From a virus: a stretch of DNA of 64,000 nucleotides. Positions 6,001-59,134 of this stretch are shown in pieces. Made by a program: the position numbers and the translations under genes. Location: IMG/VR virus record IMGVR_UViG_3300045988_119787, positions 10,557-74,556 of that record; one strand, given 5' to 3'. Under the pieces are notes generated by a model. It did not search any database and had not been told where the DNA came from. It saw nothing but the letters and a program-made list of their open reading frames with translations. Each line of letters opens with the position of its first letter. Position 1 is the stretch's first letter.

Positions 6001-9000
6001 CTTTCACTCTGAAAGCCGTGATGCCTGCCGATCAGCAGGAAGCGGTAAACAAGAACCTTGAAAAGCTGGGCGATGCCGACCAGTTCCTGGTTGATGAACT
6101 TGGCTATAATGACAAGGACGATTTGTATTCTCATCTTGCAGCAGAGCAAGTTGACTCTGTAGCTCTTGCCTTGCAGCAGGCAAAGAAGGGCAACGCCTTT
6201 ATTATCGGAGATATGACTGGTATCGGTAAGGGAAGACAGGCTGCTTCACTTATCAGATATGCCAAGAAGCAGGGGCAGGTTCCTGTATATTTCACTAAGA
6301 CCGCTGGCTTGCTGAGCGATGTTTACCGTGACTTAGTGGATATTGGAAGCCCAGAGCTGAGACCATTTGTATTCGGTAGTGCCAAGGAAGCTGCCATTAC
6401 CGACTCAGACGGAAACGTAGTATTCTCCTTGCCATCTAAGAGTGAGGTGAAGCGAGTGCTTGACTACATCGAAAAGAACGGCAAGCTGCCAGAGGAATAC
6501 GACTACGTATTGACTACCTACAGTCAGGTAAGCAATGGTGTATATGAGTTTGATGAGGACGGCAACCGCAAGGAGAGAAAGCTTGCAAAGGGTAAATCAT
6601 TCGGTGCTGCTGCTCTGAGCGGACAGAAAAGACGTGATGCTATTGAAAAACTGATGGGTAACGCCTATCTTATCCTTGACGAAAGCCACACGGCTGGTGG
6701 AAATAGCGGTCAGGGTAACTATTTCCAACACATTATTCAGAAGGCAAAGAACGTTACCTTCTTCTCTGCTACCTTTGCCAAGCGACCAGACAATATGCCT
6801 ATCTACGCTTTGCGTACTGCCATGAACGAGGGCGGTATGAAATCATCCGATTTGATTGATGCGGTGAAGCGTGGTGGTGCAACCTTGCAGGAGATTATGA
6901 GCCAGACCTTGACACAATGCGGTCAGATGATTCGCCGTGAGCGAGATATGACTGGCGTAACCATCGACTGGAAGGCTATTGATGATCCTGAGCGAGTTAA
7001 GGAGCAACGAGAACAGTATGATAGTATCATCGGATTGTTTAATGATATTATCAATTTCCAGAAGAAATATGTTTCAAGTTACGTTGATGAACGTAATATT
7101 GAATTGGCAGACATCCAATCTACGATGGATATCAAGAAGGGCACAGAATCTTTAGGTATCAAGAATCAGCCTTTTGCCAGCAAGGCATTCAATACCGTTC
7201 AGCAGGTACTTCTCTCCTTGAAAGCGAAGTCTGCTGCAGAACGTGCAATCGACTATTTGAAGCAGGGGATGAAGCCTGTGATTGCATTGAACAACACCAA
7301 TGAATCGCAGACAGGAAACCTTGCACTTGGTGAGGAAATGGACGCACCAGACTTGGGCACATCTTTGAAGAAGGGTCTGGAGGGTACACTTCGCTACACT
7401 CAGAAGGATGCCAAGGACAATAGCGAAAGCGGTTATTTCAAGCTTGAAGACTTGGGCGAAGAGGCTGTTAAGGCTTATCACGAACTGGAAAAGAAGATTG
7501 AGCAGACAAGTACCGGTCTTTCACTCTCCCCTATAGATGTTATCAAGAACGAGCTGCAGAAGGCAGGTTATAAGGTTGGCGAGCTGACAGGAAGACAGAC
7601 CGAGTTTGTTTATAACGACAACGGAACAGTTACCAAGGTAAAGCGTGCTGATACCGACAAGAAGAAACTCGCACGCGACTTTAACGATGGTAAGATTGAT
7701 GCGCTTATCCTCAACAAGAGTGCTGCAACCGGTATTTCCCTTCATGCTTCGAGCAAGTATAAGGACCAGAAGAAGCGTGTGATGATCGTGGCGCAGCAGC
7801 AGCTTGACGTGAATGACGAGGTTCAGATGCGTGGACGTATCGACCGAACCGGTCAGGTGGCTAGAGGTGCATACGAGTATGTGGTTTCCCTTATCCCTGC
7901 CGAGCAGCGACTGCTGATGATGTTTAAGGCTAAGTTGAAGTCACTTGATGCCAACACGACTTCTTCTCAGAAGAGTAAGTTCAACGAAATGGAAGTTGCC
8001 GATATTACCAATAAATATGGTGACAAGGTGGTTAAGGAATACATGGCAGAGCATCTTGACCTTTATGCACGCATGGCTGATCCATTCGGATGGGAAAAGA
8101 CTTACGGTGATGATTTGAGTAGAATCAACCCACAAAACCTTGTTGTCAGTGGTGGAGGTGTCGGTGATGGTGAAGCTGGTGCCGATGCAAGCAAGTTGCT
8201 TGGACGTATGGCTTTGCTGAGAGTAAACGAGCAGGAGAAGATGTTGCAGGAGATTGGCGAGCTTTACGCCAACGAGATTCAGCGACTCAACGAAATGGGC
8301 GAGAACGATTTGGAGATTACCGAGCTGCCACTGAAGGCTAAGACTATCCACAAGGAAGTATGGAAGCAGGGCGCTGAGCCGGGCGGCGATAACGCCTTTG
8401 CCGACAACACCTATATAGAAAAGGTGAACATGGCTATCTTGAAGAAACCGATGAAGGCTTCTGAGGTGAAAGCTTCGCAGGAAGGCTTGACTGGCGGCAA
8501 GACTTGGGATGAATACAAAACCGAAAAGAAGACTGCCGTGAAGGAATACTTCGGCCAGAAGATTGCGAACGAGACTCAGAGGTATGAGGAGCGTGCGGTG
8601 AAGGCTGCAACCAAGGCAAAAGAGAAGTATATCAAGGATGGAAAGAAGGGTCAGGAGAAATCGGGCATGACCGATGAGCAGATAGAAAAGAATGCTGAAT
8701 ATCAGTACGAGACTATCTACAAGCAGGAGAAGGATAAGCTGGATGATGTAGTGAAGAACTTGAAGGAGAAGGCAGAAATGTTTGACCGTGTTCTTGACAC
8801 CTTCGACACCAACCAGACTTTCGTTCTGCCTACGGACATGAACAATCCTAACGAGTTGAGCGGATTCGGCAACAGCTACGGTAGACTGATTGACATCAAG
8901 ATTACTGATAACTTCTCGCCTAACGCCTCTTCTGTTTCCTTTGCAACCTTGGATGGCAGAAGAAAGATTACCTTCCCTATCGCTGGCAAGGTTGGTGCAG

Positions 9001-12000
9001 GTGAAAACAAGGCAGACATTATCGGCGCCATCGACAACATGACTAAGCAGGCAATCGGTATGGGAGACAGCCATCTCAGAGTATTGAACCAAAACTTTGA
9101 TAACTGGGATAGACTGACTAGCAATGAGAGCCGCAAGAATGGCTATATCGTGACCGGTAATCTGATGCAGGCTTTGGTTGACAGTAAAGATCAGGGCTTG
9201 GGCGGTCAGTTGGTGAAATATACTACTGATACTGGCGAGGTGAAGACTGGTATCTTGATGCCAGACAGATTCGACCCTAAGGGCTTGACAACGGATGCGC
9301 CTATCAACAGCGTGACAGAGAAGTTTGAGCTTTCATCATGGCATGGTGGTATTGACGAGGTTACTTCATCGGATGGTGAAGTAAAGGTGAAGCGCATAGA
9401 CAACAATCGTGGCTACTTCTACGAGCTTCGTGTACCGAAGAGCAAGGCGAAGGGCGGCAAGTACTTCATGGATGAAGATTTGCTGAAACTGGTTAATGGC
9501 AATAACTTCGAGACCAGAGGCAACAATATGCTTGCTGAGTTTAAGCCAGAGCAGTTGAAGCCAGTACTGGACCGCCTGTCTAAAATGGGCGTGAAGGTGC
9601 AGGAGGAGCGCAAAACTTCTGAGGATGAAGGCACCCACTTCCGTGAGGACCGAGGCTTGCAGTATTCTAAAACAGATACAAAAGATGTTAAGAAAGGTAG
9701 AATCATTCCCGAAGATGTAGATAAAAATGTATCTTCGCAGATTGAAAAGAAGTTTGATTCTACCATTAAGGACATCGAAGAGCATACAGAAGACAGAGAT
9801 AAATCTTTGTTTGCTGATAATCTTGAATCTGCTCTGGATGAGTTTTCTGATCTTGGTAGAAGCGTTATTGAATATTACAAGAATGATTATGAACGAAAAG
9901 TTGAAAAGTTATCAGGACAGCATACCGGAGGACATCTTGGTGGTAAGAATGACGGTAAGGGAAATAAAGGCTCTTATCTACTGCAATATTATAAGACCGT
10001 TCTCGCCGTCGCTGACAGAGAACTTGCCTATAGAGACGCTAGAGCAAAGAATCTCAGAGAGACTTGGGGATTGCAGCCAGGAGGAGCGTTCACACTTGGA
10101 GCCGTTGAACGAATTTTTAAAGAAACAAATAGAGATAAAGGAAAGGCTGAACTCTTCCAAAGAGTTCTCGATATAAACAAGCGTCTTGGTGTAAACATCA
10201 AGGTAAGTGCCGAGAGTCCGAAGAAGAGATCTGGAGAAGCAGACACCAATAGAAACATTGATTTGTATATTGATGGTCTGACAAAAACAATGGCTCCAGA
10301 CTACGCTGCCCCTACTATTATGCTGCATGAAATGATTCATGAGGTAACAATGGGTGCTATCAATCTCGTTAAGAAAGGTAAGGCTGAGGGCATACTGACC
10401 CCTAAGCAGATAGAGGGCGTAAAGACTATCCTCAAAATCTATGACAAGGTAAAGGACGATAAGGAACGCTTCAAAGAAGAGCCTTACGGTCTGACTGATG
10501 CTTACGAGTTGACTGCTCAGATGGCAGATTCTAGACAGAGAAAGGCGATGGACTTGTCTATCTGGGATAGAGTTATGAATGCAGCACACGAATTTGCAAG
10601 AAGGGGCGATCGCTCTATCTTGCAGAGAGTGAAGGATGCCATCAAGAAACTGTTTGAGGTTTCTGACAAGGATAAGATGGATAAGGCTATCAACGACATC
10701 ATGGATGATTTCAATGAAACCATTGATGATATTTCCATGAATGAGATTGAACAGGATGGATTCGCCTACAAGGTTACAGACAAGGATGAGCTGGACCGCC
10801 TCAACAAGGAAAAGACTTTCAGAATGTATAGCGGAATGCAGGAGGTGGACGGAAAGTTGTACTCCCCTATGGCTGCGATCATTGACGGAAAGCGTACCGA
10901 TGCTACCGAGATTGGCGCTTGGATGGGCGCAGACGAGCGACCTGACCTTGTGAAGAACGGAAAGTTTACACTTGTGAAGACTGATAAGAATAAGGGTGTT
11001 GGCGAGGGTGATGTGCCTGCTGCCTACAATCCTTATATGCACACCTCCACTTCTATGATGAACGACCAGTTTACCGGTGCTTACGCTAGAGGCAACATCA
11101 AGGTTGTGGAATGGGAGATTCCTGAAAGCGAGAAGACCAGTGGCTATCGTGCTGAGGGTGCAAAGGATGCTGTGGGTCTTGTACCTTGGCATTCGGGTTC
11201 GGTTAATAGTTTGCTGCCGAAGGACAGACAGAGACAGGTGATGTTGTCACGCTGGAGAAAGGCGGTGAGAGTGGTTCCTGATTCAGAGGTGGCTGAGAGT
11301 ATCGCAGAACAGTTGAAGGGTACAGGCTTGGCTATCCCTTGGAATGTGGTTACTCCTAATCAGGTTAGGGAGTTGGCTAAGCTGGGCGTACCTATCACTA
11401 CCGTTGAATCGGGAAGACAGGCTCCTGAAACCAAGGAGAAGTTCTTGCAGCAGATGGCTGAACTGGAACAGGAGTTCCCTCAAGCTAAGTTCGTTAACGT
11501 GAAAATGTCAAAGGATGCCTTCAAGGTATGGGGCAAGGACGGAGGCACCAAGTTCCGCACGGACCATGGAGAAAGTAGCTACCCTACTTCATCGGTTGAG
11601 AGCCATGTGGAGAAGGTGGCTCAGAAGACTGGCGCAAAGGTGAACATGGTTTCATCAGTTGATGAAATCACCAACAAGGCTGCTAAGGCTGCTATTGAGG
11701 AAGGTAGAAAGATTACTGGCTGGTATGACGAGAAGACTGGCGAGGTACATCTTTATATGCCTAATATCCATGACAGATATACTGCCGAGAAGACTATCTG
11801 GCATGAGGTGGTTGGTCACAAGGGAATGAGAGAGTTGTTTGGTGAAGACCGATTCAACCAGTTCCTTCGTGATGTTTGGTACGACTTGGATAAGCCTGAG
11901 AATGCCGAATTGAAGAAGCTGGTGGATGAGGAGAGAAGATACAATCCTCTGAATATCTATGATGCCATAGAGGAAGGTATCGCCCGACTCGCCGAGGATG

Positions 12001-15000
12001 GCAAGGGTGAACCGGGCTTCTGGAATGGTATCAAAAACAAGGTATCTGATTTCCTTCATGAAATCGGTTATCGTATTGCTCCTAATACTAAAGATGTGAA
12101 GTATCTGCTCTGGTTGAGCAAGAACTTGCAGAAAAATCCGAATGACCCTTATTGGAAGCTGAGAGCCGAGGCGGTGAAATTCCGTCTCGACCATGATCGT
12201 GTGCCTGCTGTCGTGGCGCATGATGGTATGTTCTACGGAAATGACGGTAAGGTCCGCAGTATGGAGAGCATGACCAAGAGCGAATGGAACGAGGCTACAG
12301 ACGGACAGATTCACTTCCGTACTACCCCATCTGCCGGCACAGCACTTGACAGATACCACCGTTCGCTGGATGAGCACGGCTATATGTTCACCGAGAGCTA
12401 TATGGATAATATGCTTTCGTTGAAGAAGTTGATGAATGCGATTGTGCCAGATAAGAAGATTGAGGATATTGCTTCTTCGGAGAATCCTTATATACTGCAG
12501 AACACCATGCAGGGTGCGATGAGTGATGCGGCTCAGATGTTTGAGCGCAACGTAATGAAGCCGCTTGACAAGGCGATGGCTGGTGTGCTGGATGCCTTTG
12601 ATGGCAAGAAGGATGATGAGAAGATTAGAAACTTCAATCTCTACATGATTACCAAGCATGGTTTGGAGCGAAACAGAGTGTTCTTTGTTCGTGACTTCCT
12701 TAGACAGATGAGAATGTACGAGAAGAAGAAGCAGGATGCAGACATCTTGGAGAACCGCTGGAGTAACGAGAAGGAACGTCTGGATAACGAACTGAATGCT
12801 GGTAACATCGACCTGAAGGAGTACTACAGACAGATAGACGAGTTTATCAACAACGAAATCGACCCAGACTATAAGGCTGGCGAACACGACTATTCGGGTA
12901 TTCACGCTATACAAGAGGTAGCAAAGTCTTCTGACCCATACGATGATGCAGAGGCTATCGCTAGCGTGATGGATTCGGAAGCTAAGATGGAGAGCATCAA
13001 GAAGGGAGCTGTGAAGGACTATTGGGATAAGGTGAAGGCTGCAACCCAGTATTCGATTGACAGCGACTACAAGAATGGTATCATCAGCAAGGAGTTGCAC
13101 GGTCATGTATCTAATATGTTCAACTGGTATGTGCCTTTGAGAAAGTATGATGAGGCTACTGCAGAAGATACTTATGGCTACATTACTGAGCAGGGAGACC
13201 CGAAGAGTTACATCGGAAGCACCATCATGAGAGCAAGAGGACACAAATATCTGAGTGAGACAAATGTGCTGGCGCAGATTGGTGCGATGGGTAACAGAGC
13301 TATCAAGAACGGCGGTATGAATGCTATCCGTCAGGCTTTCGCAAGATTCGCGCGAAATAATTCGGGCAATAATCTGATTACAGAAACGAGTGTATGGTAT
13401 GAGAAGGACCCAATGACCGGTATTGTTTATGAGCGCTATCCTGATATTCCTGAGGACGCTACACCAGACGAAATCAACCAGATAGTTGCAGACTTCAATA
13501 CAGACATGAAGGCAAAGGCTGCACAGGGCTTGGCATCGAAGGTTTACCGCAGGGGCAGTATCGGCTATAAGTTCCAAAGAGCTGAGAATAAATCACAGCA
13601 TATCGTAGACGTGAAGATTGCCGGCAAGACTCATTCTTTTGTTATCAACGGAAATCCCAGAGCAGCGCAGGCATTGAATGGGTTGCTGGAGAACTCTAGC
13701 GCCAAGGGATTCATGAAACCTTTGAGCACTATTTCTAGAATGATGGCACAGCTCTGTACTTCATACAACCCTGAGTTCGTGATGAGAAACGCCTTCCGTG
13801 ATGCTGAGTTTGCTTCGAGCAACGTTACATCGAAGGAAGGTGCAAGATACGGGGCACTCTGGGCTAAGTACTACGCACAGCTGGGTCTGTATAAGGGCGC
13901 ATCGAATATCAGCTTGAAGGATTTCAGCGGTTCTACGGGTTTGGGATTGTTCGCAAAGTATCGTAACGGCACACTTGATATTTCTGACAAGGTTCAGAGA
14001 TACTTCAAGGAGTTCATGGAGAACGGCGGTGAGACTGGTTGGGTTCAGATCAAGAACATGAAGGATTGGACCAAGGAATACAAGAAAGACGTGAAGGACG
14101 AAAGAAGCAAGCTGAACAAGGGCGGTGAACTGGTACGTGATTTCTTCTTCGGTAACTTGGAGAACGTGAATGAGGTGGCAGAGAATATCGCCCGATTCAC
14201 TACTTACTGTACGAGTCGTGATTATGGACGTTCCGTTATCCGCTCTGTCTATGATGCCAAGGAAGTATCTACCAACTTCAACCGTCATGGTAGCGGTGAT
14301 GCCGTCAAGAGTTTCAAGAACGGTGAAATGACTGGAACCAAGGCTGCAAGAAGATGGGCATACGGATTTACTTCCGGCTATCTCAGACACTGCTCTATGT
14401 TCTTCAACGCTGGTATTCAGAGTACGAACCTTCTTGCGAAGAACTTGAAGAATCATCCTGTAGGAACTTCCATCAACATGCTTGCCATTCCTTTTGCACT
14501 CGGTGCGCTGGCTGCACTTGGAAACAATGTGCTGATTGCGAGTGAGGACGAAAAGGACAGAAAGGGAGTGAAGGACCCATACGGTGAACTGCCTGACTAC
14601 GTGAGAAGGAACAATCTCTGTATCTACAAGGGAGGCGGTCAGTTTATCACGATTCCGCTTGCCATCGAGTTAAGAGCTTTCTATGGCTTGGGTGACTTGG
14701 CTGCAGGCTTGACCTTCTCGCCAAACGTGAGCGGACAGAAGAATCCTTACTTAGATGCCGTGGGCTGTATGTCGCAGCTGGTTCCTGTGATGGACTATCT
14801 CGGTAACTCTTCGGCAGGCAAAGAACCGATTAACGAGACCATCAAGGCTATCTCTCCTTCTGCCCTATCTCCATTCGTTGAATGGGAGTTAAATACCGAC
14901 TGGAAGGGTGCGCCTATTGAGAGACGTGGCGACTGGAACGAAAATTCCCCTGCTTGGCAGAGAGCCTACAAGGGTATTCCTGACGGTTATATGGCTGTAA

Positions 15001-15551
15001 ACAAATGGGTGAATGCCCAGACAAACGATGTAGCCAAGGGTAACGAGGATATGCTGGGTAATAGTTTCCTGGATATGGTAACGAACCCTAGTATGCTGAA
15101 TCATTACATCGGCGGTCTTGGCGGTGGTGCTGCTACCTTTACTGAGCGTGCTATTGGTGTTGTGAAGCATGGAAATGATACGGAAACCAAGGATATTCCT
15201 TTCCTTCGCTCCCTACTCTATACGCCTAGCGAGCAAAGCAGCTTGCAGAGAACCAAGAGCAAGTGGTATAACTACAAGGACGAAATGGAAAAGACCATGG
15301 CAAATGTGGACCGTCTGAAATCCAAGAACGTTCCGATTGATAAGAGAATCACGAATATTGGGGAATATTATCACTTCCAAAACTCCAAGGAAGCTGCCAA
15401 GGTGAGAGTAATCGAGCTGGCAGAGAAACAGATGAAGCGCTGGAAGAAGATGAGGGATAAGGCTAGCGATACAGAAAGCATCAACTTCGCTAATCAGAAT
15501 ATTGATAGGATCATGATGGATGCGGTGGACGAACTGGATAGACTGGAATAA
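3..15551 (+). CDS. Giant multidomain 'polyvalent' protein (>=5175 aa; reading frame open to the window edge, so 5'-partial): ParB-like, N6-adenine MTase, Sno/SNF2-like helicase, two zincin modules, C-terminal TM segment
   Basis: Uninterrupted ORF in frame 3 ending TAA 15549-15551. No stop lies between position 3 and the TTG at 24 used by the ORF track. Catalytic motifs are listed as sub-features. Architecture matches polyvalent and DarB-like proteins of phages and conjugative elements. Confidence 0.85.
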   Translation, partial: STGDDTSLSALGQAALGGFEHGATTGAMFGVSGAIMAPWVSKFGITGLEKSTGEKWLHGTQKLGATAAGLGVEAGTMMVADNITGDKDISFGTWLEDVVMVGAFKAGEPKNYAHIGNALYNLTHNSGGNFVIGKNTNGSPIAVDIRLTPDEKNELISSASGKNLMDAFVKVDRASKTAPRDSKYKTAYTDFMNDPDVSQSTKEKVNAAMGLFNTTRGKSYRSVNDVKNKQILEYTKNGTLLTRTSYKNADERRAILYKQKLYRDNDDMMSLIGYSKMKDMQLTDEDGNVTSLALGFLRNNGYDTSKDVTDPINAQLINDLRNPKSALYLDWEKYVDVYGSYGDLKVESADVVGGFMDTLKKMINDKGNMTVDIDNIMRKDPMKRTDQENKIFYYVKKALEDELFPSWRPHADQSASQGKTVAEEHSLGTDDPDSGVVVDELRNLRNAEQALDAAMDSNDVFKQTFEKLHQQGLTPAQIYDALIQNGLTQEELTPLAQYINANARVQGMQQATADVIEENVKSFISDWSYHGTLNGQAMNGEQALYVQDSNGRTLLVGSGDVAFDQTTGRAKEGSGDMLVCFDPNTREMVYVKADEVTLFQNQPIDQFAAEYRQRLQMKNSEPYNQAAQEQAMQDAAKPQQEQEAPQDNTTKSEDNTTKEGDLTKDDTTLTKVNTTSGKDNTTNENLAPQEQPQPSRKFADGSDVPMATDSKGRPTPDYEKMTPEQSAEILTEDFGDNAEKVVDGQIQKAEKALKDAEKMKVDYTAEPNDIMEQETLKNQTIEAAKKQLDHAQNIKKAMTAKKVAETVGKTEQTEGAHEAGSVAAQKFVNAPRLIGNKRTRMLPDGETKIKGHYEIVPAESLTPSHDVNNGYKKSEGFPTDAEGRTVNDRDYEHDKAAQQNTDQIARKYNGMAIEQVPVVSDEGIVYDGNGRTMAGQKAAKEGTDAEYINDLLENAENFGFTREQIEQSGIEHPRLVMVTDERLPYDAATFAKFNRNEKKTQSNTEQAVAKAKTLTSDEVGAIVAEIEGNGSLDAFFNNSKAINDLVKTLVDKGIIGQNEVAQMMDSPERLSAQGREYVKNLLLGSIFKPETIRMLGIDSTVKNKAINAIRSVMDNMKLGEFSLRDEIDQAIQLLYEARRGGNKVDTLLRTPSMFGEDAAKRYSSISQMMALALEGKVSDFRDLLDEYNRIAAARNTGEGDVFGEAPTKPELIKEFMDFKKWQDYGTGHSENERGNDVSGIEEPQQEASGGNEPAEAERPRVEEPEVGSLPLLPKEENPDPQFNPIEAAAAEFKKEHPLTEEEIMKADVDDLSKDMALDYQNGEVTDDLHRAIYESIYAKRKGLKAEPKVETPKSEPSADPMEAFKNAAEGFEKEKKGKAEQPKKPQQTADDAAVAASNKKVNDLWDMLKNAGKDEMSASFVGLNSRQLEVLPKLVSAMAENAYLRIKRGMHNLEDVVKEMRKEFAPASKIFKKEDVDAIYEQMMNIRYRDGEQRMSLKEWADYYEKTSPKHQENLVGDSKSAEERKMAEKKFIDVVNLQLGFKHKFNGIVELRKIAERLGLKDIKDTDLQELAETAIVKRARGIASSESTNNAEKFKRIKTLYENQPSLNQRDSERVMKQQYSTPAPYAFLADMYVKGNGKVIESALEPSAGNGMLTIGLPKDKVHVNDIDDTRLLNLNRQGFGKVTSQDGTQPFNVKPVDIVITNPPFGSATPKEYDGYKISSLEGQMAINALESMKDDGRAAIIIGGKTEYAKNGSLNPKDKAFLGYLYSHYNVEDVINVDGGLYAKQGTSYPTRIILINGRRLDENAFPPVKDKARAEAVKDYDELYKRIEDDILRGERMDSSIGGETRSAQPELDKQGAAGTPKERVRAGERGGSKPDGERESDLFDSTSVSGTHDDLENQRGTEPREDGGLSGGDTGTDRTGTEPSQSEGATAGTNEQRGAGSGGAGRNDAQPSTDEPASAGSGSGPRGQLQRVDKSVRGLSTEKVTYTPKSGNPFTLKAVMPADQQEAVNKNLEKLGDADQFLVDELGYNDKDDLYSHLAAEQVDSVALALQQAKKGNAFIIGDMTGIGKGRQAASLIRYAKKQGQVPVYFTKTAGLLSDVYRDLVDIGSPELRPFVFGSAKEAAITDSDGNVVFSLPSKSEVKRVLDYIEKNGKLPEEYDYVLTTYSQVSNGVYEFDEDGNRKERKLAKGKSFGAAALSGQKRRDAIEKLMGNAYLILDESHTAGGNSGQGNYFQHIIQKAKNVTFFSATFAKRPDNMPIYALRTAMNEGGMKSSDLIDAVKRGGATLQEIMSQTLTQCGQMIRRERDMTGVTIDWKAIDDPERVKEQREQYDSIIGLFNDIINFQKKYVSSYVDERNIELADIQSTMDIKKGTESLGIKNQPFASKAFNTVQQVLLSLKAKSAAERAIDYLKQGMKPVIALNNTNESQTGNLALGEEMDAPDLGTSLKKGLEGTLRYTQKDAKDNSESGYFKLEDLGEEAVKAYHELEKKIEQTSTGLSLSPIDVIKNELQKAGYKVGELTGRQTEFVYNDNGTVTKVKRADTDKKKLARDFNDGKIDALILNKSAATGISLHASSKYKDQKKRVMIVAQQQLDVNDEVQMRGRIDRTGQVARGAYEYVVSLIPAEQRLLMMFKAKLKSLDANTTSSQKSKFNEMEVADITNKYGDKVVKEYMAEHLDLYARMADPFGWEKTYGDDLSRINPQNLVVSGGGVGDGEAGADASKLLGRMALLRVNEQEKMLQEIGELYANEIQRLNEMGENDLEITELPLKAKTIHKEVWKQGAEPGGDNAFADNTYIEKVNMAILKKPMKASEVKASQEGLTGGKTWDEYKTEKKTAVKEYFGQKIANETQRYEERAVKAATKAKEKYIKDGKKGQEKSGMTDEQIEKNAEYQYETIYKQEKDKLDDVVKNLKEKAEMFDRVLDTFDTNQTFVLPTDMNNPNELSGFGNSYGRLIDIKITDNFSPNASSVSFATLDGRRKITFPIAGKVGAGENKADIIGAIDNMTKQAIGMGDSHLRVLNQNFDNWDRLTSNESRKNGYIVTGNLMQALVDSKDQGLGGQLVKYTTDTGEVKTGILMPDRFDPKGLTTDAPINSVTEKFELSSWHGGIDEVTSSDGEVKVKRIDNNRGYFYELRVPKSKAKGGKYFMDEDLLKLVNGNNFETRGNNMLAEFKPEQLKPVLDRLSKMGVKVQEERKTSEDEGTHFREDRGLQYSKTDTKDVKKGRIIPEDVDKNVSSQIEKKFDSTIKDIEEHTEDRDKSLFADNLESALDEFSDLGRSVIEYYKNDYERKVEKLSGQHTGGHLGGKNDGKGNKGSYLLQYYKTVLAVADRELAYRDARAKNLRETWGLQPGGAFTLGAVERIFKETNRDKGKAELFQRVLDINKRLGVNIKVSAESPKKRSGEADTNRNIDLYIDGLTKTMAPDYAAPTIMLHEMIHEVTMGAINLVKKGKAEGILTPKQIEGVKTILKIYDKVKDDKERFKEEPYGLTDAYELTAQMADSRQRKAMDLSIWDRVMNAAHEFARRGDRSILQRVKDAIKKLFEVSDKDKMDKAINDIMDDFNETIDDISMNEIEQDGFAYKVTDKDELDRLNKEKTFRMYSGMQEVDGKLYSPMAAIIDGKRTDATEIGAWMGADERPDLVKNGKFTLVKTDKNKGVGEGDVPAAYNPYMHTSTSMMNDQFTGAYARGNIKVVEWEIPESEKTSGYRAEGAKDAVGLVPWHSGSVNSLLPKDRQRQVMLSRWRKAVRVVPDSEVAESIAEQLKGTGLAIPWNVVTPNQVRELAKLGVPITTVESGRQAPETKEKFLQQMAELEQEFPQAKFVNVKMSKDAFKVWGKDGGTKFRTDHGESSYPTSSVESHVEKVAQKTGAKVNMVSSVDEITNKAAKAAIEEGRKITGWYDEKTGEVHLYMPNIHDRYTAEKTIWHEVVGHKGMRELFGEDRFNQFLRDVWYDLDKPENAELKKLVDEERRYNPLNIYDAIEEGIARLAEDGKGEPGFWNGIKNKVSDFLHEIGYRIAPNTKDVKYLLWLSKNLQKNPNDPYWKLRAEAVKFRLDHDRVPAVVAHDGMFYGNDGKVRSMESMTKSEWNEATDGQIHFRTTPSAGTALDRYHRSLDEHGYMFTESYMDNMLSLKKLMNAIVPDKKIEDIASSENPYILQNTMQGAMSDAAQMFERNVMKPLDKAMAGVLDAFDGKKDDEKIRNFNLYMITKHGLERNRVFFVRDFLRQMRMYEKKKQDADILENRWSNEKERLDNELNAGNIDLKEYYRQIDEFINNEIDPDYKAGEHDYSGIHAIQEVAKSSDPYDDAEAIASVMDSEAKMESIKKGAVKDYWDKVKAATQYSIDSDYKNGIISKELHGHVSNMFNWYVPLRKYDEATAEDTYGYITEQGDPKSYIGSTIMRARGHKYLSETNVLAQIGAMGNRAIKNGGMNAIRQAFARFARNNSGNNLITETSVWYEKDPMTGIVYERYPDIPEDATPDEINQIVADFNTDMKAKAAQGLASKVYRRGSIGYKFQRAENKSQHIVDVKIAGKTHSFVINGNPRAAQALNGLLENSSAKGFMKPLSTISRMMAQLCTSYNPEFVMRNAFRDAEFASSNVTSKEGARYGALWAKYYAQLGLYKGASNISLKDFSGSTGLGLFAKYRNGTLDISDKVQRYFKEFMENGGETGWVQIKNMKDWTKEYKKDVKDERSKLNKGGELVRDFFFGNLENVNEVAENIARFTTYCTSRDYGRSVIRSVYDAKEVSTNFNRHGSGDAVKSFKNGEMTGTKAARRWAYGFTSGYLRHCSMFFNAGIQSTNLLAKNLKNHPVGTSINMLAIPFALGALAALGNNVLIASEDEKDRKGVKDPYGELPDYVRRNNLCIYKGGGQFITIPLAIELRAFYGLGDLAAGLTFSPNVSGQKNPYLDAVGCMSQLVPVMDYLGNSSAGKEPINETIKAISPSALSPFVEWELNTDWKGAPIERRGDWNENSPAWQRAYKGIPDGYMAVNKWVNAQTNDVAKGNEDMLGNSFLDMVTNPSMLNHYIGGLGGGAATFTERAIGVVKHGNDTETKDIPFLRSLLYTPSEQSSLQRTKSKWYNYKDEMEKTMANVDRLKSKNVPIDKRITNIGEYYHFQNSKEAAKVRVIELAEKQMKRWKKMRDKASDTESINFANQNIDRIMMDAVDELDRLE
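1941..2050 (+). repeat. Degenerate tandem repeat (GATAATACCACAAAA-like, about 5 copies) encoding DNTTK-type low-complexity linker
   Basis: gataataccacaaaa occurs at 1941-1955 and 1962-1976, with diverged copies to ~2050. Protein reads DNTTKSEDNTTKEGDLTKDDTTLTKVNTTSGKDNTTNE. Confidence 0.7.
2550..3000 (+). other. ParB/Srx-like N-terminal domain within giant ORF
   Basis: HYEIVPAESLTPSHDVN...VVSDEGIVYDGNGRTMAGQKAAKEG. The DGxxRxxA-type arginine motif is typical of ParB-like nuclease/NTPase domains. Confidence 0.6.
4860..5412 (+). other. N6-adenine DNA methyltransferase domain (gamma-type motif order) within giant ORF
   Basis: Motif I LEPSAGNGMLTIG (~4944). Motif IV NPPF at 5118-5129 (VITNPPFG). 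Confidence 0.8.
5520..5940 (+). other. Disordered Gly/Ser/Glu/Arg/Thr-rich linker between MTase and helicase
   Basis: GERMDSSIGGETRSAQ...GTDRTGTEPSQSEGATAGTNEQRGAGSGGAGRNDAQPSTDEPASAGSGSGPRG; no hydrophobic core. Confidence 0.6.
6150..7900 (+). other. Strawberry-notch/SNF2-like superfamily-2 helicase core within giant ORF
   Basis: P-loop GDMTGIGKGRQAA (GIGKGR 6219-6236). DExH box LILDESHTAGG (DESH 6678-6689). Motif V-like KSAATGISLHAS. Motif VI QMRGRIDRTGQ (~7824). Confidence 0.8.
10326..10340 (+). other. Zincin motif HEMIH (first metallopeptidase-like module of giant ORF)
   Basis: PTIMLHEMIHEVTMG; codons cat gaa atg att cat. Confidence 0.55.
11802..11819 (+). other. Zincin motif HEVVGH (second metallopeptidase-like module, polyvalent-protein type)
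   Basis: ITGWYDEKTGEVHLYMPNIHDRYTAEKTIWHEVVGHKGMRELFG. Confidence 0.6.
14470..14540 (+). other. Predicted transmembrane segment near C-terminus of giant ORF
   Basis: SINMLAIPFALGALAALGNNVLIA hydrophobic stretch flanked by charged residues. Confidence 0.45.
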
Positions 15552-17318: not shown

Positions 17319-17663
17319 TTAAACAATACCCGTCATAAGTTGAAGGGTGTTAGTGTCTCTCTCAAACCAGAGCTGAACAACTCCAGTTCCCGGCACGTCT
17401 GCAACCGTCAAAGCATCACCATTGAATTTGGTTACGGCTTGGGTTACTCCGTTGGTCTCGAAAAGGATAGGCAGCGTACCGGTCGTTCCAGTCGGAATAG
17501 CCTGACGCAGATTTACGAAAATCGTTCCTCTGTAGCTGGCATTCACGAAGGCGTGGTTTTTAAAGGTGAACACCACATTGGCAGTATTCACCGCCACGCC
17601 TGTAGAAGCGATAGCCGCCGAACCGTTACGATTCACCCATGTATAAGGTCTTAACCATAACAT
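17319..17663 (-). CDS. Small beta-rich hypothetical protein, probably highly expressed
   Basis: 114-aa ORF. GGAGG 5 nt upstream of the ATG (plus-strand cctcc 17669-17673). Confidence 0.6.
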   Translation of the reverse strand: MLWLRPYTWVNRNGSAAIASTGVAVNTANVVFTFKNHAFVNASYRGTIFVNLRQAIPTGTTGTLPILFETNGVTQAVTKFNGDALTVADVPGTGVVQLWFERDTNTLQLMTGIV

Positions 17664-33076: not shown

Positions 33077-33868
33077 ATGATCATAAAATTTCAAATTATC
33101 AAATCGGTAGTGATGGAGGCAGTAAAGTCGACAACCTACCTGAAAGCAAAGATAGATACTGCGGCAGACGAAAAAGCAGCGAAAGTAAGCTTTAACGAGG
33201 CTGCCGGCGACGATGAGGTTCACGAAAGAACGCTGACCCACGACTTTGATACAGCATTGGAAGTATTGAAGACCATCTTCGTAGACTATCTTGTACCAAC
33301 GCCTCAAACTATTGGCGACAACGCCATCTACTACGGAAGCAGAACGGATGATATAGTGGAGTTCACCCTATCAGTATCAAGACGTTATAACGGAACGCTG
33401 ACCGACGCGCTGGCAAGGCTGTCAGCAAGATACGTGGAGGACTACATGATATACCAGTGGTGGCTGAAAACAACAAACCTGAAACAAGCGGAGCCATACC
33501 AAGCTACACTTGCATCAGATGAGATAGCCATCAGAAAGTGCTTCGTGATGAGTGGTCCGCTGGTCCCAAAGGTTCCTTATTCTTCCACATTGACCGCCAA
33601 GGTTGACGGAAGCGACACGGACGGTGGCGTTACAATAGCAGTAGAGAACGATGAAGTGACCCTATCCTACTCTATTGACGATGGGGCTATTGACGATATT
33701 GAGGCAAGAAGCAGCGACCCTTGTATCTTGGAAGTTCACAGAATGCAGGAGCCTCATACCTTTTGGCTGAAACCGCTGAACACTGGAGTGGCTTACGTGA
33801 CATTATTCTCACGTCACAGCGACAATCTGAAAAAGGAAATAGAAGTAACCATAGCAAAGGAGGTATAA
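33077..33868 (+). CDS. Hypothetical protein with C-terminal Ig-like (Big_2-like) domain
   Basis: C-terminus SSDPCILEVHRMQEPHTFWLKPLNTGVAYVTLFS...EIEVTI resembles bacterial Ig-like domains. Confidence 0.5.
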   Translation: MIIKFQIIKSVVMEAVKSTTYLKAKIDTAADEKAAKVSFNEAAGDDEVHERTLTHDFDTALEVLKTIFVDYLVPTPQTIGDNAIYYGSRTDDIVEFTLSVSRRYNGTLTDALARLSARYVEDYMIYQWWLKTTNLKQAEPYQATLASDEIAIRKCFVMSGPLVPKVPYSSTLTAKVDGSDTDGGVTIAVENDEVTLSYSIDDGAIDDIEARSSDPCILEVHRMQEPHTFWLKPLNTGVAYVTLFSRHSDNLKKEIEVTIAKEV

Positions 33869-33869
33869 G

Positions 33870-34478
33870 ATGGAGTTCAATTCATTACACCCTACGCATT
33901 TCCTCAGAGAGAAAGGATGGAAGCCTGAGCCAAATCCTTTCCTTCCGAAACCTCCACGTCCTGCCCATGTGTATTTCGACAAGCACATCTTTATCTATTC
34001 CAACCAACTTTGGTATGATATAGATGCAACAACCCACATGATGGGCAGAGTAAGACAGGAGAGCGACCCAAATATAGCGAATACCGTTCCGACAAGTGAG
34101 AACACGCAGGAAAGACCACTTTTCTATAGATGGTTCGACAAATACCTGAAAAAGGCAGAAGGTCTGCTTTCTGCCTACATCATGAAACCGCAGGGCGTGG
34201 TAAGAGACAATGCCTTGAAGGAATGGGATGAGAAGGAAATGTGGCTGAGGATGCCAGATTACTGGGACGATGCAAGACTAGACGAACTGGTGCAGGCAAT
34301 ACATCATTATATATCAACAGGCGCTCTGTATGAATACTTCCTGCTGACATTGACAAGCAAAGACCCGCTGACCGTTGACAAGGCTACACAGCTGGAAGAC
34401 GATGAGCTGGAGATTCTAGACGCAGCCAATGCCAGCAAGCCGGGTGGAATGATTCATACATTGAAGCCATTTGGATAA
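33870..34478 (+). CDS. Hypothetical protein preceded by perfect SD AAGGAGGT
   Basis: 202-aa ORF. AAGGAGGT at 33857-33864, 5 nt before the ATG. Confidence 0.55.
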   Translation: MEFNSLHPTHFLREKGWKPEPNPFLPKPPRPAHVYFDKHIFIYSNQLWYDIDATTHMMGRVRQESDPNIANTVPTSENTQERPLFYRWFDKYLKKAEGLLSAYIMKPQGVVRDNALKEWDEKEMWLRMPDYWDDARLDELVQAIHHYISTGALYEYFLLTLTSKDPLTVDKATQLEDDELEILDAANASKPGGMIHTLKPFG

Positions 34479-50526: not shown

Positions 50527-51243
50527 TTACGTTAGATTTACTACAAGTCCTGCCTTGGCGTAATAGGTTGGAACGCCTAGAACTTGCTGGAACTTACTTA
50601 CTGCTGCATTCGGGATGAGGTGTCGGGCAGAACCGTGGATGAGGATGATTTTGCGGGCACAGTGCTCTACGTCACAGTCATGCAGCCAAGAAATGGCGTG
50701 CTCCATACTCATGTGGGATAACCGAATGCGGTCCGCTTGTCTTTTAGGAGTTAAGCCATCTGCTGTAGCCTTGTCTAGCATACTGTCCGAATAGTTGCAC
50801 TCTGCAAGATAGGTTTTGCAACCTCTGATAACAAAATTCAGATTGTAGCAATCCGTAGCAAAGAAGATGGTGCCATAGGATGATTCATGAATCAGATACC
50901 CGAAGTTTTTTGCGTCATGCTCTACTGGGAATGGGGTTACACCAAACTTTCCAAAACGGAAAGTGATGTTCTCATACATCGTATCAACACCCGGATATTT
51001 CTCTGCCACTTCATCGTTTGAAGAAACATTGATTCCTGCCCTCAGATATTCGGGAATGTGCTTGGCATGATCGCCATGAACGTGGCTTATAATGCACCCT
51101 ACCACCTTGCTCGTCTTGTACCCGATAGCCTTTTTCACCTCTTTCAAGGGTACGCCTGCTTCAATCAGCAGGATTTCTCCCGAATCTGATTGAAGGGCAT
51201 ACGAATTGCCTTGCGATGAAGAACCGATAATGATTAGCTTCAT
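50527..51243 (-). CDS. Metallo-beta-lactamase-fold hydrolase
   Basis: Start at ATG 51243 (MKLIIIGSSSQGNSY). HxHxDH motif IISHVHGDHAKH. Confidence 0.7.
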   Translation of the reverse strand: MKLIIIGSSSQGNSYALQSDSGEILLIEAGVPLKEVKKAIGYKTSKVVGCIISHVHGDHAKHIPEYLRAGINVSSNDEVAEKYPGVDTMYENITFRFGKFGVTPFPVEHDAKNFGYLIHESSYGTIFFATDCYNLNFVIRGCKTYLAECNYSDSMLDKATADGLTPKRQADRIRLSHMSMEHAISWLHDCDVEHCARKIILIHGSARHLIPNAAVSKFQQVLGVPTYYAKAGLVVNLT

Positions 51244-51244
51244 A

Positions 51245-51484
51245 CTACAACAAGTTAAGGCTAATAGCAGTACGTCTCTTAAAATCAAGATTCATATCTG
51301 CCATACGATACTCCAGAGCTTCAAGGTAGGTGGTCATGCCTACCGACTGCTTCACCATTAGCTTATACTGGTACTCGCCAACTTTCTGCAAGAAACCTTC
51401 CTTTTTCAAGGCAGCGTTCAACTTGCTTAAACGCTCTACTAGCTCATCGTGCTCTTCGCACATTCTTTTCTGAAAATCTTCCAT
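51245..51484 (-). CDS. Hypothetical protein
   Basis: Trimmed to ATG 51484 (MEDFQKRMCEEHDELVERLSKL...), just after the upstream stop at 51489. Confidence 0.45.
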   Translation of the reverse strand: MEDFQKRMCEEHDELVERLSKLNAALKKEGFLQKVGEYQYKLMVKQSVGMTTYLEALEYRMADMNLDFKRRTAISLNLL

Positions 51485-57525: not shown

Positions 57526-57551
57526 CCTGCCTATCCTCACGGACCAGCAGG
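57526..57551 (-). promoter_or_regulatory. Conserved-loop hairpin, copy 3 (CCTGC-UGGUCCGUGAGGAUAG-GCAGG on minus strand)
   Basis: Read directly. Loop differs from copy 1 at two transitions. The stem sequence is different but still complementary. Confidence 0.55.
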
Positions 57552-57640
57552 AGAGTAAAACTTTCAATTTATGTACAATAATAGTTGCCGCTGCAACAAT
57601 TTTCAGATTTCATGGAAAAAACCAACTAAACAAATAGAGT

Positions 57641-57748
57641 TGCAGAAGTGGGACTCGAACCCACGACTAGTTGCACGGTTTGATAAGAATATGCTAAGGA
57701 TTTATACATCTGTTACGTGCTTGCTCTAACCAACTGAGCTATTCTGCA
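57641..57748 (-). tRNA. tRNA-like gene with a 58-nt expanded arm replacing the anticodon arm and variable loop (108 nt, no encoded CCA)
   Basis: Minus strand TGCAGAA-TA-GCTC-AGTTGGTTA-GAGC-[58 nt]-GTGGG-TTCGAGT-CCCAC-TTCTGCA. Perfect 7-bp acceptor stem with canonical D and T arms. No 5-bp/7-nt anticodon stem-loop fits anywhere in the 58 nt. Confidence 0.6.
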
Positions 57749-58127
57749 AAGTTGCGGCATCATGCGCTACCATGAATTTAAGAGCCATGCTCACCGCTAG
57801 AAATGCAACAAAATTTGTTTCAACTATCAATTATGGCTAATCAACATCACACACGTGCGTTGCATTTCCTATATAAGAACTTAAATATATTCGCCTTTTT
57901 CCAATATGTCAAAGAACAAATGCCCACAAACTGGCAATGGGATTGTTTGAGAATCTGTTACATATTTAAAATGAAGGTGTTGGTAGAATGCTCGACCACA
58001 ACATTTCCTTATGGTTCGTGGCGCCTGAAAAGTATCAACGCAAACAACTATATTTCGCCACTGGTCTTTACCGCTCTTTTGTCACCGTTTCATTCGGATT
58101 TAATATAATAACAATATTTCAAAACTA

Positions 58128-58203
58128 TGGAGGCGCCAAGCGGAATCGAACCGCCGACCTCTGCAAACCTCCTTGCAGCGCTCTACCACTGAGCTAAGGC
58201 GCC
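58128..58203 (-). tRNA. tRNA-like gene with encoded CCA whose 'anticodon' hairpin displays the SD sequence (CUGCAA-GGAGGU-UUGCAG)
   Basis: Minus strand GGCGCCT-TA-GCTC-AGTGGTA-GAGC-G-CTGCAAGGAGGTTTGCAG-AGGTC-GGCGG-TTCGATT-CCGCT-TGGCGCC-T-CCA. The loop is 6 nt (6-bp stem) or 8 nt (5-bp stem), never 7, and has no U33. Confidence 0.65.
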
Positions 58204-58207
58204 AAGA

Positions 58208-58235
58208 TCACTCCTATTCTCACGAACCAGAGTGA
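58208..58235 (-). promoter_or_regulatory. Conserved-loop hairpin, copy 1 (UCACUC-UGGUUCGUGAGAAUAG-GAGUGA), 4 nt upstream of tRNA-like 2
   Basis: Read directly from the sequence. Confidence 0.55.
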
Positions 58236-58297: not shown

Positions 58298-58334
58298 CAC
58301 TCTTTCAAAACCTCCACCCTGCTCACGCAGAGTG
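58298..58334 (-). promoter_or_regulatory. Diverged hairpin copy 2 (CACUC-27-nt loop containing CGUGAG and GGUGGAGGUU-GAGUG)
   Basis: Shares GTTATT..TTCACTCTG..CGTGAG with copy 1 on the minus strand. Confidence 0.4.
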
Positions 58335-58382
58335 AAGGAAAATAACGCTTAGAATTTTTATCTAAAAGCCTAACGGCTGTCA

Positions 58383-58595
58383 TCATTGCTCTTCTACCAG
58401 TTCGGGGTACTTCTTTACGAGGATTCCCCCATATCGGTTGGTTGCAACATCACGTATATTAACAGCCAACTCACTGTTCGTTTTGAATGCTATTGCAGCA
58501 TAAACTGCCGCATCGCAGCAGCCTACCGTCTTTGCTATTTTAGCTATTTTTGATTTTCTTATCAAAATTTTCGGCTTAAAAACTATTTTATCCAT
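58383..58595 (-). CDS. Cro-like small HTH protein
   Basis: 70 aa. SKIAKIAKTVGCCDAAVYAAIAF is HTH-like. Divergent from the CI-like gene. Confidence 0.5.
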   Translation of the reverse strand: MDKIVFKPKILIRKSKIAKIAKTVGCCDAAVYAAIAFKTNSELAVNIRDVATNRYGGILVKKYPELVEEQ

Positions 58596-58762: not shown

Positions 58763-59134
58763 ATGGAAGGATTAAGGGATAGAATCAATGAAATAAAAGA
58801 CTATTACAGACTGTCTAACAGAGGGTTTGCAGAAGCTGTAGGTGGCAAACCAGCTGCTACAAACAACTATCTGAACGGTACAAAGGAACCTTCTCTAGAG
58901 TTTGTAGACAGAATATTGTCTACCTATGTAGACATTTCTGCAGAATGGCTTCTTCGAGGTGAAGGTTCGATGTTTAAGGAAGACAAACCAACCGATGAAG
59001 CACTCTTGAAAGAGTTGTCAGAAGCCAAGGTCAAGCTGCTGGTACAAGAGGGCATCACCAAAGAGTTGCGTGATATGCTCCTGGAGAAGAACAACGGCAA
59101 GATTGCAGATGAGCGCAAGAGTCTTGTAGAATAA
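58763..59134 (+). CDS. XRE/CI-like HTH transcriptional regulator
   Basis: RLSNRGFAEAVGGKPAATNNYLNGTKEPSLEFVDRILSTYVDISAEWLLRGEG is a typical Bacteroidales XRE-type repressor. Coiled-coil C-terminus. Confidence 0.65.
   Translation: MEGLRDRINEIKDYYRLSNRGFAEAVGGKPAATNNYLNGTKEPSLEFVDRILSTYVDISAEWLLRGEGSMFKEDKPTDEALLKELSEAKVKLLVQEGITKELRDMLLEKNNGKIADERKSLVE

Follow-up and report, generated by a model that had tools for sequence, protein, structure and literature searches.

The element that we call tRNA-like 2 is best explained as a selectively maintained, non-decoding tRNA mimic on an ordinary Ala/Val-type scaffold, and as one interchangeable cassette in a fixed slot made up of a GUGA hairpin, 3–6 nt, the tRNA-shaped RNA and a U-rich trailer. 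The slot lies within an accessory non-coding block of ~0.85 kb, between a cro-like gene and the genes for NinG, Rha/KilAC and dUTPase of a phage early operon. In the reading that we prefer, and to which we give about an even chance, the tRNA shape is used for the excision or stabilisation of a small RNA, for the separation of transcripts, or for both, with the loop as a variable payload. Host tRNA-processing enzymes (RNase P and RNase Z) would cut the element out of the early transcript, which would yield a stable small RNA and part the message upstream of it from the non-coding RNA that follows. The 'anticodon' loop, which changes fast among near-identical phages, would be an exposed payload, and the Shine-Dalgarno (SD) octamer AAGGAGGU that it presents here would be one allele rather than the purpose of the gene.

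Genomic setting and structure of the element

The window, by which we mean the whole stretch of 64,000 nucleotides that was analysed, derives from a tailed phage encoding a portal protein, a terminase, RecT, an SbcC-like protein, NinG, a Rha/KilAC antirepressor and a dUTPase. By portal protein its closest cultured relatives are the temperate Bacteroides phages BS-TP4, BKO1-TP3 and BF1-TP2 (32–36% identity), and we take the source to be a temperate Bacteroides phage of the gut. Among GenBank phages, megablast and blastn returned no match to the locus except generic tRNA similarity. The early operon runs from the cro-like ORF through the ~0.85-kb non-coding block to a 63-aa ORF, NinG, Rha/KilAC, dUTPase, the SbcC-like gene and RecT; tRNA-like 2 lies in this apparent operon, on the strand opposite to a divergent 123-aa gene (58763-59134) with weak resemblance to HTH/RstR-like repressors. 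In BS-TP4 the repressor/early-operon layout is the same, without the block, NinG, Rha or the tRNA-like genes, and we regard the non-coding block as accessory because this phage shares the layout and yet lacks the block.

Elsewhere in the window, a giant ORF (24-15551, plus strand; 5175 aa or more) may extend past the window start, and may be compared with gp3 of BS-TP4, a protein of 5391 aa whose gene adjoins the portal gene. Downstream of RecT lies the gene for an MBL-fold protein (50527-51288, minus strand), whose BS-TP4 homologue in the same position is termed a 'metal-dependent hydrolase'. Against RNase Z and cyclic-nucleotide-degrading phosphodiesterase this protein scores ~25–28 bits, with cutoffs of 293–400, and by sequence it has no match among solved structures; its candidacy as a phage-encoded RNase Z was rejected, the match being one to the generic fold (28 bits against a 293-bit cutoff).

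The original prediction had described a 76-nt tRNA-shaped element with an encoded CCA and canonical arms, and every one of these features is present by sequence, ARAGORN, Rfam and folding. On the minus strand, 58128-58203 reads GGCGCCU-UA-GCUC-AGUGGUA-GAGC-G-CUGCA-AGGAGGUU-UGCAG-AGGUC-GGCGG-UUCGAUU-CCGCU-UGGCGCC-U-CCA. ARAGORN returns exactly these coordinates as 'tRNA-???, anticodon (gagg)', an undetermined identity with a four-base anticodon; covariance-model scoring, which had been proposed as a check, gives 52.4 bits against the Rfam tRNA model RF00005, above its gathering score of 29; and the minimum-free-energy fold is the cloverleaf. U8, A14, G18-G19, G53-U54-U55-C56 and A58 can all be read from the sequence, the variable loop has 5 nt, and a U7/U66 mismatch marks the body clade of the window. 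With G1, U-1 and a full acceptor/T-arm, the sequence is compatible with RNase P cleavage. Among Rfam families only the generic tRNA model passes in the block, all others, including tmRNA and the DUF2693 RNA, being sub-threshold.

The loop at the anticodon position has 8 nt, or 6 nt if A31-U38 is paired; U33 is missing from it, a pyrimidine stands at position 37, and the earlier statement that it offers no usable anticodon geometry is borne out. Together with the A before it, AGGAGGUU makes up the SD octamer AAGGAGGU at 58167-58174 (minus strand), where it had been placed. The possibility that this SD serves a downstream ORF was rejected, there being no start codon at a usable spacing. The features of the locus are collected in Table 1.

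Table 1. Features of the non-coding block and its surroundings, in window coordinates
Feature	Position	Strand	Description	Evidence
cro-like ORF, 70 aa	58383..58595	-	first gene of the early operon that holds the non-coding block	ORF list
Hairpin hp1	58310..58339	-	GUGA-capped; ~45 nt past the stop codon of the cro-like gene	
Hairpin hp2	58208..58235	-	GUGA-capped; ends 4-5 nt before G1 of tRNA-like 2	
tRNA-like 2	58128..58203	-	76-nt cloverleaf, Ala/Val-type class I scaffold, apparently non-decoding; U73 discriminator, encoded CCA	ARAGORN, Rfam, fold, covariation
Anticodon-arm hairpin CUGCA-AGGAGGUU-UGCAG	58161..58178	-	stem compensated (G-C to A-U) in L050/L054	
'Anticodon' loop AGGAGGUU, 8 nt	58166..58173	-	variable position of the family	
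U-rich trailer UAGUUUUGAAAUAUUGUUAUUAUAUU	58102..58127	-		from sequence
Conserved block GGUGAGCAUGGCUCUUAAAUUCAUGGUAGCGCAUGAUGCC	57756..57795	-	directly upstream of tRNA-like 1	
tRNA-like 1	57640..57748	-	cloverleaf with conserved ~38-nt insert (57678-57715) in the anticodon arm	Rfam 47.6 bits, alignment, fold
Hairpin hp3	57526..57551	-	GUGA-capped; shortly before the next ORF (start ~57497)	

Relatives, loop alleles and cassettes

A database search for tRNA shapes with a GGAGG loop, as suggested earlier, found 2 loci in viral and 12 in metagenome sequences, and none in bacterial genomes. Since a pattern with fixed GGAGG yields a loop-biased sample, three loop-free retrievals were made: 1) by the neighbouring NinG protein, 2) by the 3' half of the element, and 3) by its 5' half with the anticodon stem. 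Together with the window, the combined set comprises 29 distinct contigs and 20 distinct sequences (34 loci, five of them re-fetches). The bodies fall into two clades, GGCGCCU...UGGCGCC-UCCA and GGCAUCU...GGGUGCC-UCAUU, the latter without an encoded CCA, which differ in the acceptor stem and the T stem by changes that are compensated; the anticodon stem of L050 and L054 supplies a third such change (G-C to A-U). In a 17-sequence alignment 96.6% of cells are paired, as against 35–53% with the partners slid, and double changes occur at three pairs. The pairing and the compensated stem changes indicate that the cloverleaf is under selection and that tRNA-like 2 is real, and for this reason we do not regard it as a decaying pseudogene.

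A functionless tRNA pseudogene in decay might account for the U7.U66 mismatch and for the occasional defects of relatives, namely U55C in L006 and L009 and D-stem defects in L043 and L052. We nevertheless consider it very improbable: changes are compensated in three stems, the element is kept at a fixed slot in 29 contigs and two body clades, and all alleles are non-canonical rather than a mixture of intact and broken copies. The earlier view of the element as something other than a decayed pseudogene is thereby upheld.

The loop is highly variable. Across the 29 contigs it reads AGGAUGCU in ten, AGGAGGUU in nine, the 7-nt AGGAGGU in five, which are independent assemblies, ACAAAGGU in three, and AGGAGGUA and AGGAUGGU in one each. 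GGAGG-type loops thus occur in 15 contigs and in both body clades; in the loop-unbiased viral sample of 16 contigs, AGGAUGCU is the commonest (10/16) and GGAGG is found in 2/16. Alleles of 7 and 8 nt sit on the same body, and relatives carrying AGGAUGCU, AGGAUGGU or ACAAAGGU have near-identical bodies and flanks. A canonical loop (7 nt, U33, purine at 37) is seen in none of the 29 contigs; the relatives with 7-nt loops, which might have pointed to decay had those loops been ordinary, read AGGAGGU with G33.

Close comparisons place the variation in the anticodon arm. Between the window and L050, 6 of 18 positions of the arm are changed, against 5.6% of the ~600 nt around it (p=5e-4); between L002 and L042 the changes number 2 of 18 in the arm, both in the loop, and 0 of 462 outside it (p=1e-3; ~480 nt). 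Most alleles retain the anticodon stem together with the 5' part of the loop (CUGCA-AGGA). The alignments show at least allelic replacement at the loop, not necessarily positive selection, which the clustering test overstates because the flanks are constrained RNA too; the statistical support as a whole derives from few independent events, namely ~3 compensated pairs and 2 informative close comparisons. An origin of the variability in a diversity-generating retroelement (DGR) was rejected, with no template copy in the window and changes that are not adenine-specific, as was an attP or integration site, since the arm with a AGGAGGUU-type loop is found in no bacterial genome. In the AGGAUGCU and AGGAUGGU alleles (L015/L016/L035/L042-type; e.g. 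L015 3056-3130) the AUG of the loop opens a frame of 17 codons, ML/VAEVGGSSPLGASFVA, that spans the 3' half of the element, with a UGA just beyond; it is probably meaningless, because the GGAGG alleles are without it.

Whole cassettes are exchanged in the slot as well. A hairpin homologous to hp2 precedes every cassette type at a spacing of 3–6 nt across the family, every type begins with G, and a U-rich TTGTTATTATA motif lies downstream of all of them. L018-L020 and L026 have, after the GUGA hairpin, an RNA of ~100 nt whose acceptor stem measures 7 bp and whose T arm reads GGGYG-UUCAACU-CGCCC, on a branched body of an unrelated kind; in L021-L033 a ~72-nt cloverleaf follows the hairpin, and its 'anticodon arm' is CGGG-GAAA-CCCG. 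In type iv cassettes a GAAA tetraloop replaces the anticodon loop. Cassette types i, iii and iv have only the acceptor stem and the T arm in common, and because nothing else is common to all cassettes, we suggest that it is the tRNA shape that the phage uses. The acceptor stem with the T arm is the substrate unit for RNase P, RNase Z and the CCA-adding enzyme. Transcription of the element, its cleavage by RNase P/Z and whatever role its loop may have are inferred. Against the processing reading stand the retention of CUGCA-AGGA and the clustering of changes in the loop, which a pure processing signal leaves unexplained, and the hairpin 3–6 nt upstream of the cleavage site, which is unusual for an RNase P leader.

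The second tRNA-shaped element of the block, tRNA-like 1, is not called by ARAGORN. Its insert UAACAGAUGUAUAAAUCCUUAGCAUAUUCUUAUCAAAC is identical in two unrelated tRNA scaffolds, L002 being an example from the other clade, and this conservation of an insert with the scaffold swapped would fit tRNA bodies serving as carriers. The three hairpins hp1, hp2 and hp3 have a common design (10–12 bp, a common G.A mismatch, a GUNC/GNAU inner helix and a GUGA tetraloop) and are the only ones of such design in the 64 kb; standing after the cro-like gene, before tRNA-like 2 and before an ORF, respectively, they are nut/boxB-like by position. Inside the block there is also a sigma-70-type promoter sequence (57884-57912, minus strand; TTGACA, 17 nt, TATATT; 11/12 matches), the TTCTTTGACATATTGGAAAAG part of which is conserved across all cassette types. 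The main sigma factor of Bacteroides has a consensus unlike the sigma-70 type, and a TTGACA/TATATT promoter is odd there. The DUF2693 RNA, which we take to be a Bacteroidales phage-associated motif, matches 57859-57917 (minus strand) with 19.8 bits, far below its gathering score of 81.3, and this match may reflect a distant kinship of the block or noise.

Competing interpretations of the loop

The original prediction proposed that the element may serve to display an SD. As an anti-SD sponge or SD mimic, the RNA would pair through AAGGAGGU with the 3' tail of 16S rRNA and modulate SD-dependent translation, a role open to the GGAGG allele only. The complementarity is perfect over 8 nt: with a Bacteroidia-type tail, whose letters outside the CCUCC core are our assumption, the loop of the window forms 8 bp at -11.9 kcal/mol, in the top 0.1% of 8-nt loops, and GGAGG is found across both body clades. 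The handful of SD-led genes noted earlier is also real, with GGAGG or AAGGAG at -20..-4 in 5 of 68 crude gene calls where 0.8 are expected. The best of them, 33870-34478 (plus strand), has AAAGGAGGU in 33852-33869, 5–6 nt before its ATG, and other strong SDs stand before the gene starts at 17663 (minus), 34881 (plus, terminase), 42247 (plus) and 48511 (minus). Upstream of 33870, AAAGGAGGU is kept in ~70 of 80 relatives (L183-L262), down to 68% protein identity. The anti-SD of Bacteroidia is normally sequestered, in agreement with what had been supposed (PMC7797042, PMC9976891), and bS21 has been described as a route by which SD use is regulated in these bacteria (PMC9976891). SD use in the related phages is real and conserved, which fits this literature; so extended a conserved SD is unusual given the sequestered anti-SD of a Bacteroidia host.

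The homologues, however, do not conserve the anti-SD complementarity. AGGAUGCU reaches -4.5 against the 16S tail (top 12% of random loops), ACAAAGGU -3.9 (top 17%) and AGGAUGGU an intermediate -8.1 (top 1.6%); GGAGG is a minority allele in the loop-unbiased contigs; and GAAA-capped or other cassettes may occupy the slot instead. AAAGGAGGU is kept with GGAGG, AGGAUGC, AGGAUGG and ACAAAGG loops and with cassettes of types iii and iv, and among ~80 relatives the SD-led gene at 33870 shows no co-variation with loop allele or cassette. Because it is kept with every allele and cassette, SD use by the phage is independent of the GGAGG loop. An 8-bp helix within a closed hairpin loop of 6–8 nt would, moreover, need the stem to open. 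The sponge is on balance improbable, and the same low standing goes to a reading in which the tRNA body is a display scaffold and the loop a swappable address, so that the GGAGG allele would dock on the 30S subunit, perhaps one free of bS21, via the 16S 3' tail and tune the AAAGGAGGU-led genes, while other alleles would have other partners. SD display as the purpose of the element is not supported by these comparisons: it belongs to one loop allele, the loop varies in length, the cassettes are swapped and the AAAGGAGGU gene is indifferent to all of this. As the SD-like loop is one of several interchangeable versions, tRNA-like 2 is probably not a dedicated ribosome decoy. In the literature we found no description of a tRNA-shaped RNA with an SD loop. 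The loop resembles a CsrA/RsmE-type site (CANGGANG); this candidate was rejected, for it fits the GGAGG and GGAUG alleles and not ACAAAGGU, and no CsrA is present among the ORFs scanned. We know of no CsrA in Bacteroidales.

A decoding tRNA with an expanded loop, that is a quadruplet reader or +1 frameshift suppressor whose GAGG would read CCUC, deserves mention because ARAGORN proposes a four-base anticodon and the element has canonical T and D arms and an encoded CCA. Yet in the loop AG-GAGG-UU there is no U33, the base 3' of the putative anticodon is a pyrimidine, 7-nt and 8-nt versions share one body, and GAGG, GAUG and AAAG would all be anticodons on one acceptor identity. As a control, bacterial genomes were scanned for an identical D arm and anticodon stem and the same start of the variable loop, with 6–9 loop bases left free: all 120 of the 120 cellular tRNAs recovered have canonical 7-nt loops (tRNA-Ala CGC/GGC and tRNA-Val CAC/GAC), and it is because these same-arm tRNAs are tRNA-Ala and tRNA-Val that we call the scaffold Ala/Val-like. 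The acceptor of tRNA-like 2 has C3-G70 in place of G3.U70, together with G2-C71 and U73. The combination of G2-C71, C3-G70 and U73 does not fit the E. coli identity rules for Gly, Cys or Thr, no aaRS identity set familiar to us is matched, and variants with U55C occur. Decoding is accordingly scarcely credible: with canonical loops in 0/29 contigs as against 120/120 cellular tRNAs, no G3.U70, and U55C and D-stem defects tolerated, the RNA appears to be non-decoding.

Partner searches bear on a further reading, in which the tRNA scaffold would carry a regulator that base-pairs in trans and whose switchable seed is the loop, like the C4 RNA of P1/P7. The immunity-like region upstream of the Rha/KilAC antirepressor, the discrete loop alleles on identical bodies, and an 11-nt complement of the 38-nt insert of tRNA-like 1 in the cro-like gene would all suit it. 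This complement, UUUGAUAAGAA (58556-58566, minus strand), matches UUCUUAUCAAA of the insert perfectly; it is kept in all relatives with a cro-like gene of the 58383-58595 type, in which the neighbouring codons vary, and is missing where the upstream gene differs, although the pairing may be coincidence, since the site lies within a conserved peptide motif. For the loop of tRNA-like 2 itself, complementary 7–12-mers occur at chance level, 7-mers included, the window has no 8-nt complement on a plausible transcript, and covariation with the loop allele is seen at no column between -380 and +1000. A GCATCCT target in the cro-like gene was discarded, as it follows the gene haplotype and mismatches the loop of L042; so were a second AAGGATGCT in L015, which is same-sense and coding, and a pairing of the loop with UCCUU of the tRNA-like 1 insert, which has 4–6 bp only and no covariation. 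Such a regulator is, on these results, quite unlikely.

The main rival to the processing reading is a decoy or inhibitor of a tRNA-targeting host defence, in which an abundant, early, uncleavable look-alike would soak up an anticodon nuclease or immune effector. We judge it unlikely, its support being circumstantial throughout, and grant the same modest chance to its corollary that loop alleles and whole-cassette swaps record an arms race. It would explain why a non-decoding RNA keeps the canonical tRNA core nucleotides, why changes are concentrated in the anticodon arm with several cassette types per slot, and why the element sits in an early operon, in an accessory module missing from BS-TP4; defences that target tRNAs, and the tRNAs with which phages counter them, are well documented (PMC10264068, PMC11464382, PMC11555353). 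On the other hand, the loops are unlike any canonical host anticodon loop, and the counter-measures described in phages are functional tRNAs that decode rather than mimics.

Implications and known systems

If the processing reading is true, temperate Bacteroides phages of the human gut carry an undescribed non-coding module, with no Rfam match beyond generic tRNA, in which tRNA bodies do not decode but serve as carriers or as handles for processing, with a fast-changing anticodon position. Such a module would match, in nature, the tRNA scaffolds known from engineering, and it would be a new candidate for a part in the conflict between phage and host, or in the control of early genes, in a major lineage of the gut. 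The case also counsels caution, in that a perfect SD in the anticodon loop of one genome can be a single allele, as relatives reveal. The conserved extended SD before a gene of the structural region makes SD-dependent translation in Bacteroides phages directly testable.

In its cloverleaf, its U8/A14/G18G19/T-loop core, its 5-nt variable loop and its encoded CCA, tRNA-like 2 resembles class I tRNAs (RF00005), and its D arm and CUGCA/UGCAG stem are identical to those of real tRNA-Ala, tRNA-Val and tRNA-Thr genes. It departs from them in a variable loop at the anticodon position, of 7–8 nt and without U33 or purine 37, in the absence of the Ala identity pair, and in its place in an early-operon non-coding block rather than a tRNA array. 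With sufD-type suppressors it shares an 8-nt loop on a normal tRNA body; in contrast, these keep U33, a 3' purine and a fixed four-base anticodon, none of which tRNA-like 2 has, and its loop is polymorphic in length.

The C4 antisense RNA of P1/P7 is cut by RNase P from a tRNA-like precursor and represses antirepressor synthesis, and differences in its loops lead to heteroimmunity. The likeness consists in a small structured RNA in an early or immunity operon upstream of an antirepressor gene, whose tRNA-like shape suits RNase P and whose loop sets similar phages apart by short differences. Here, however, the cloverleaf is complete, no complementary target in the operon co-varies, and neither the host phylum nor the phage family is related. 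Altered anticodon loops let phage tRNAs escape the anticodon nucleases of the host (PMC10264068), and a T5 tRNA neutralises PARIS (PMC11464382). These share with tRNA-like 2 an anticodon loop off the host norm, plausibly shaped by conflict; they are nonetheless functional decoders with 7-nt loops and real anticodons, whereas tRNA-like 2 apparently cannot decode.

The remaining parallel is with mascRNA, which RNase P and RNase Z cut from MALAT1, and with engineered tRNA scaffolds, which carry an insert in the anticodon arm. In all of these the acceptor/T-arm 'top half' is conserved and the anticodon arm is free for a payload, the payloads here being 8-nt loops, the 38-nt insert of tRNA-like 1, a GAAA mini-hairpin and a long branched arm. 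What sets tRNA-like 2 apart is that it would be a natural case from a bacterial virus, with processing that is presumed.
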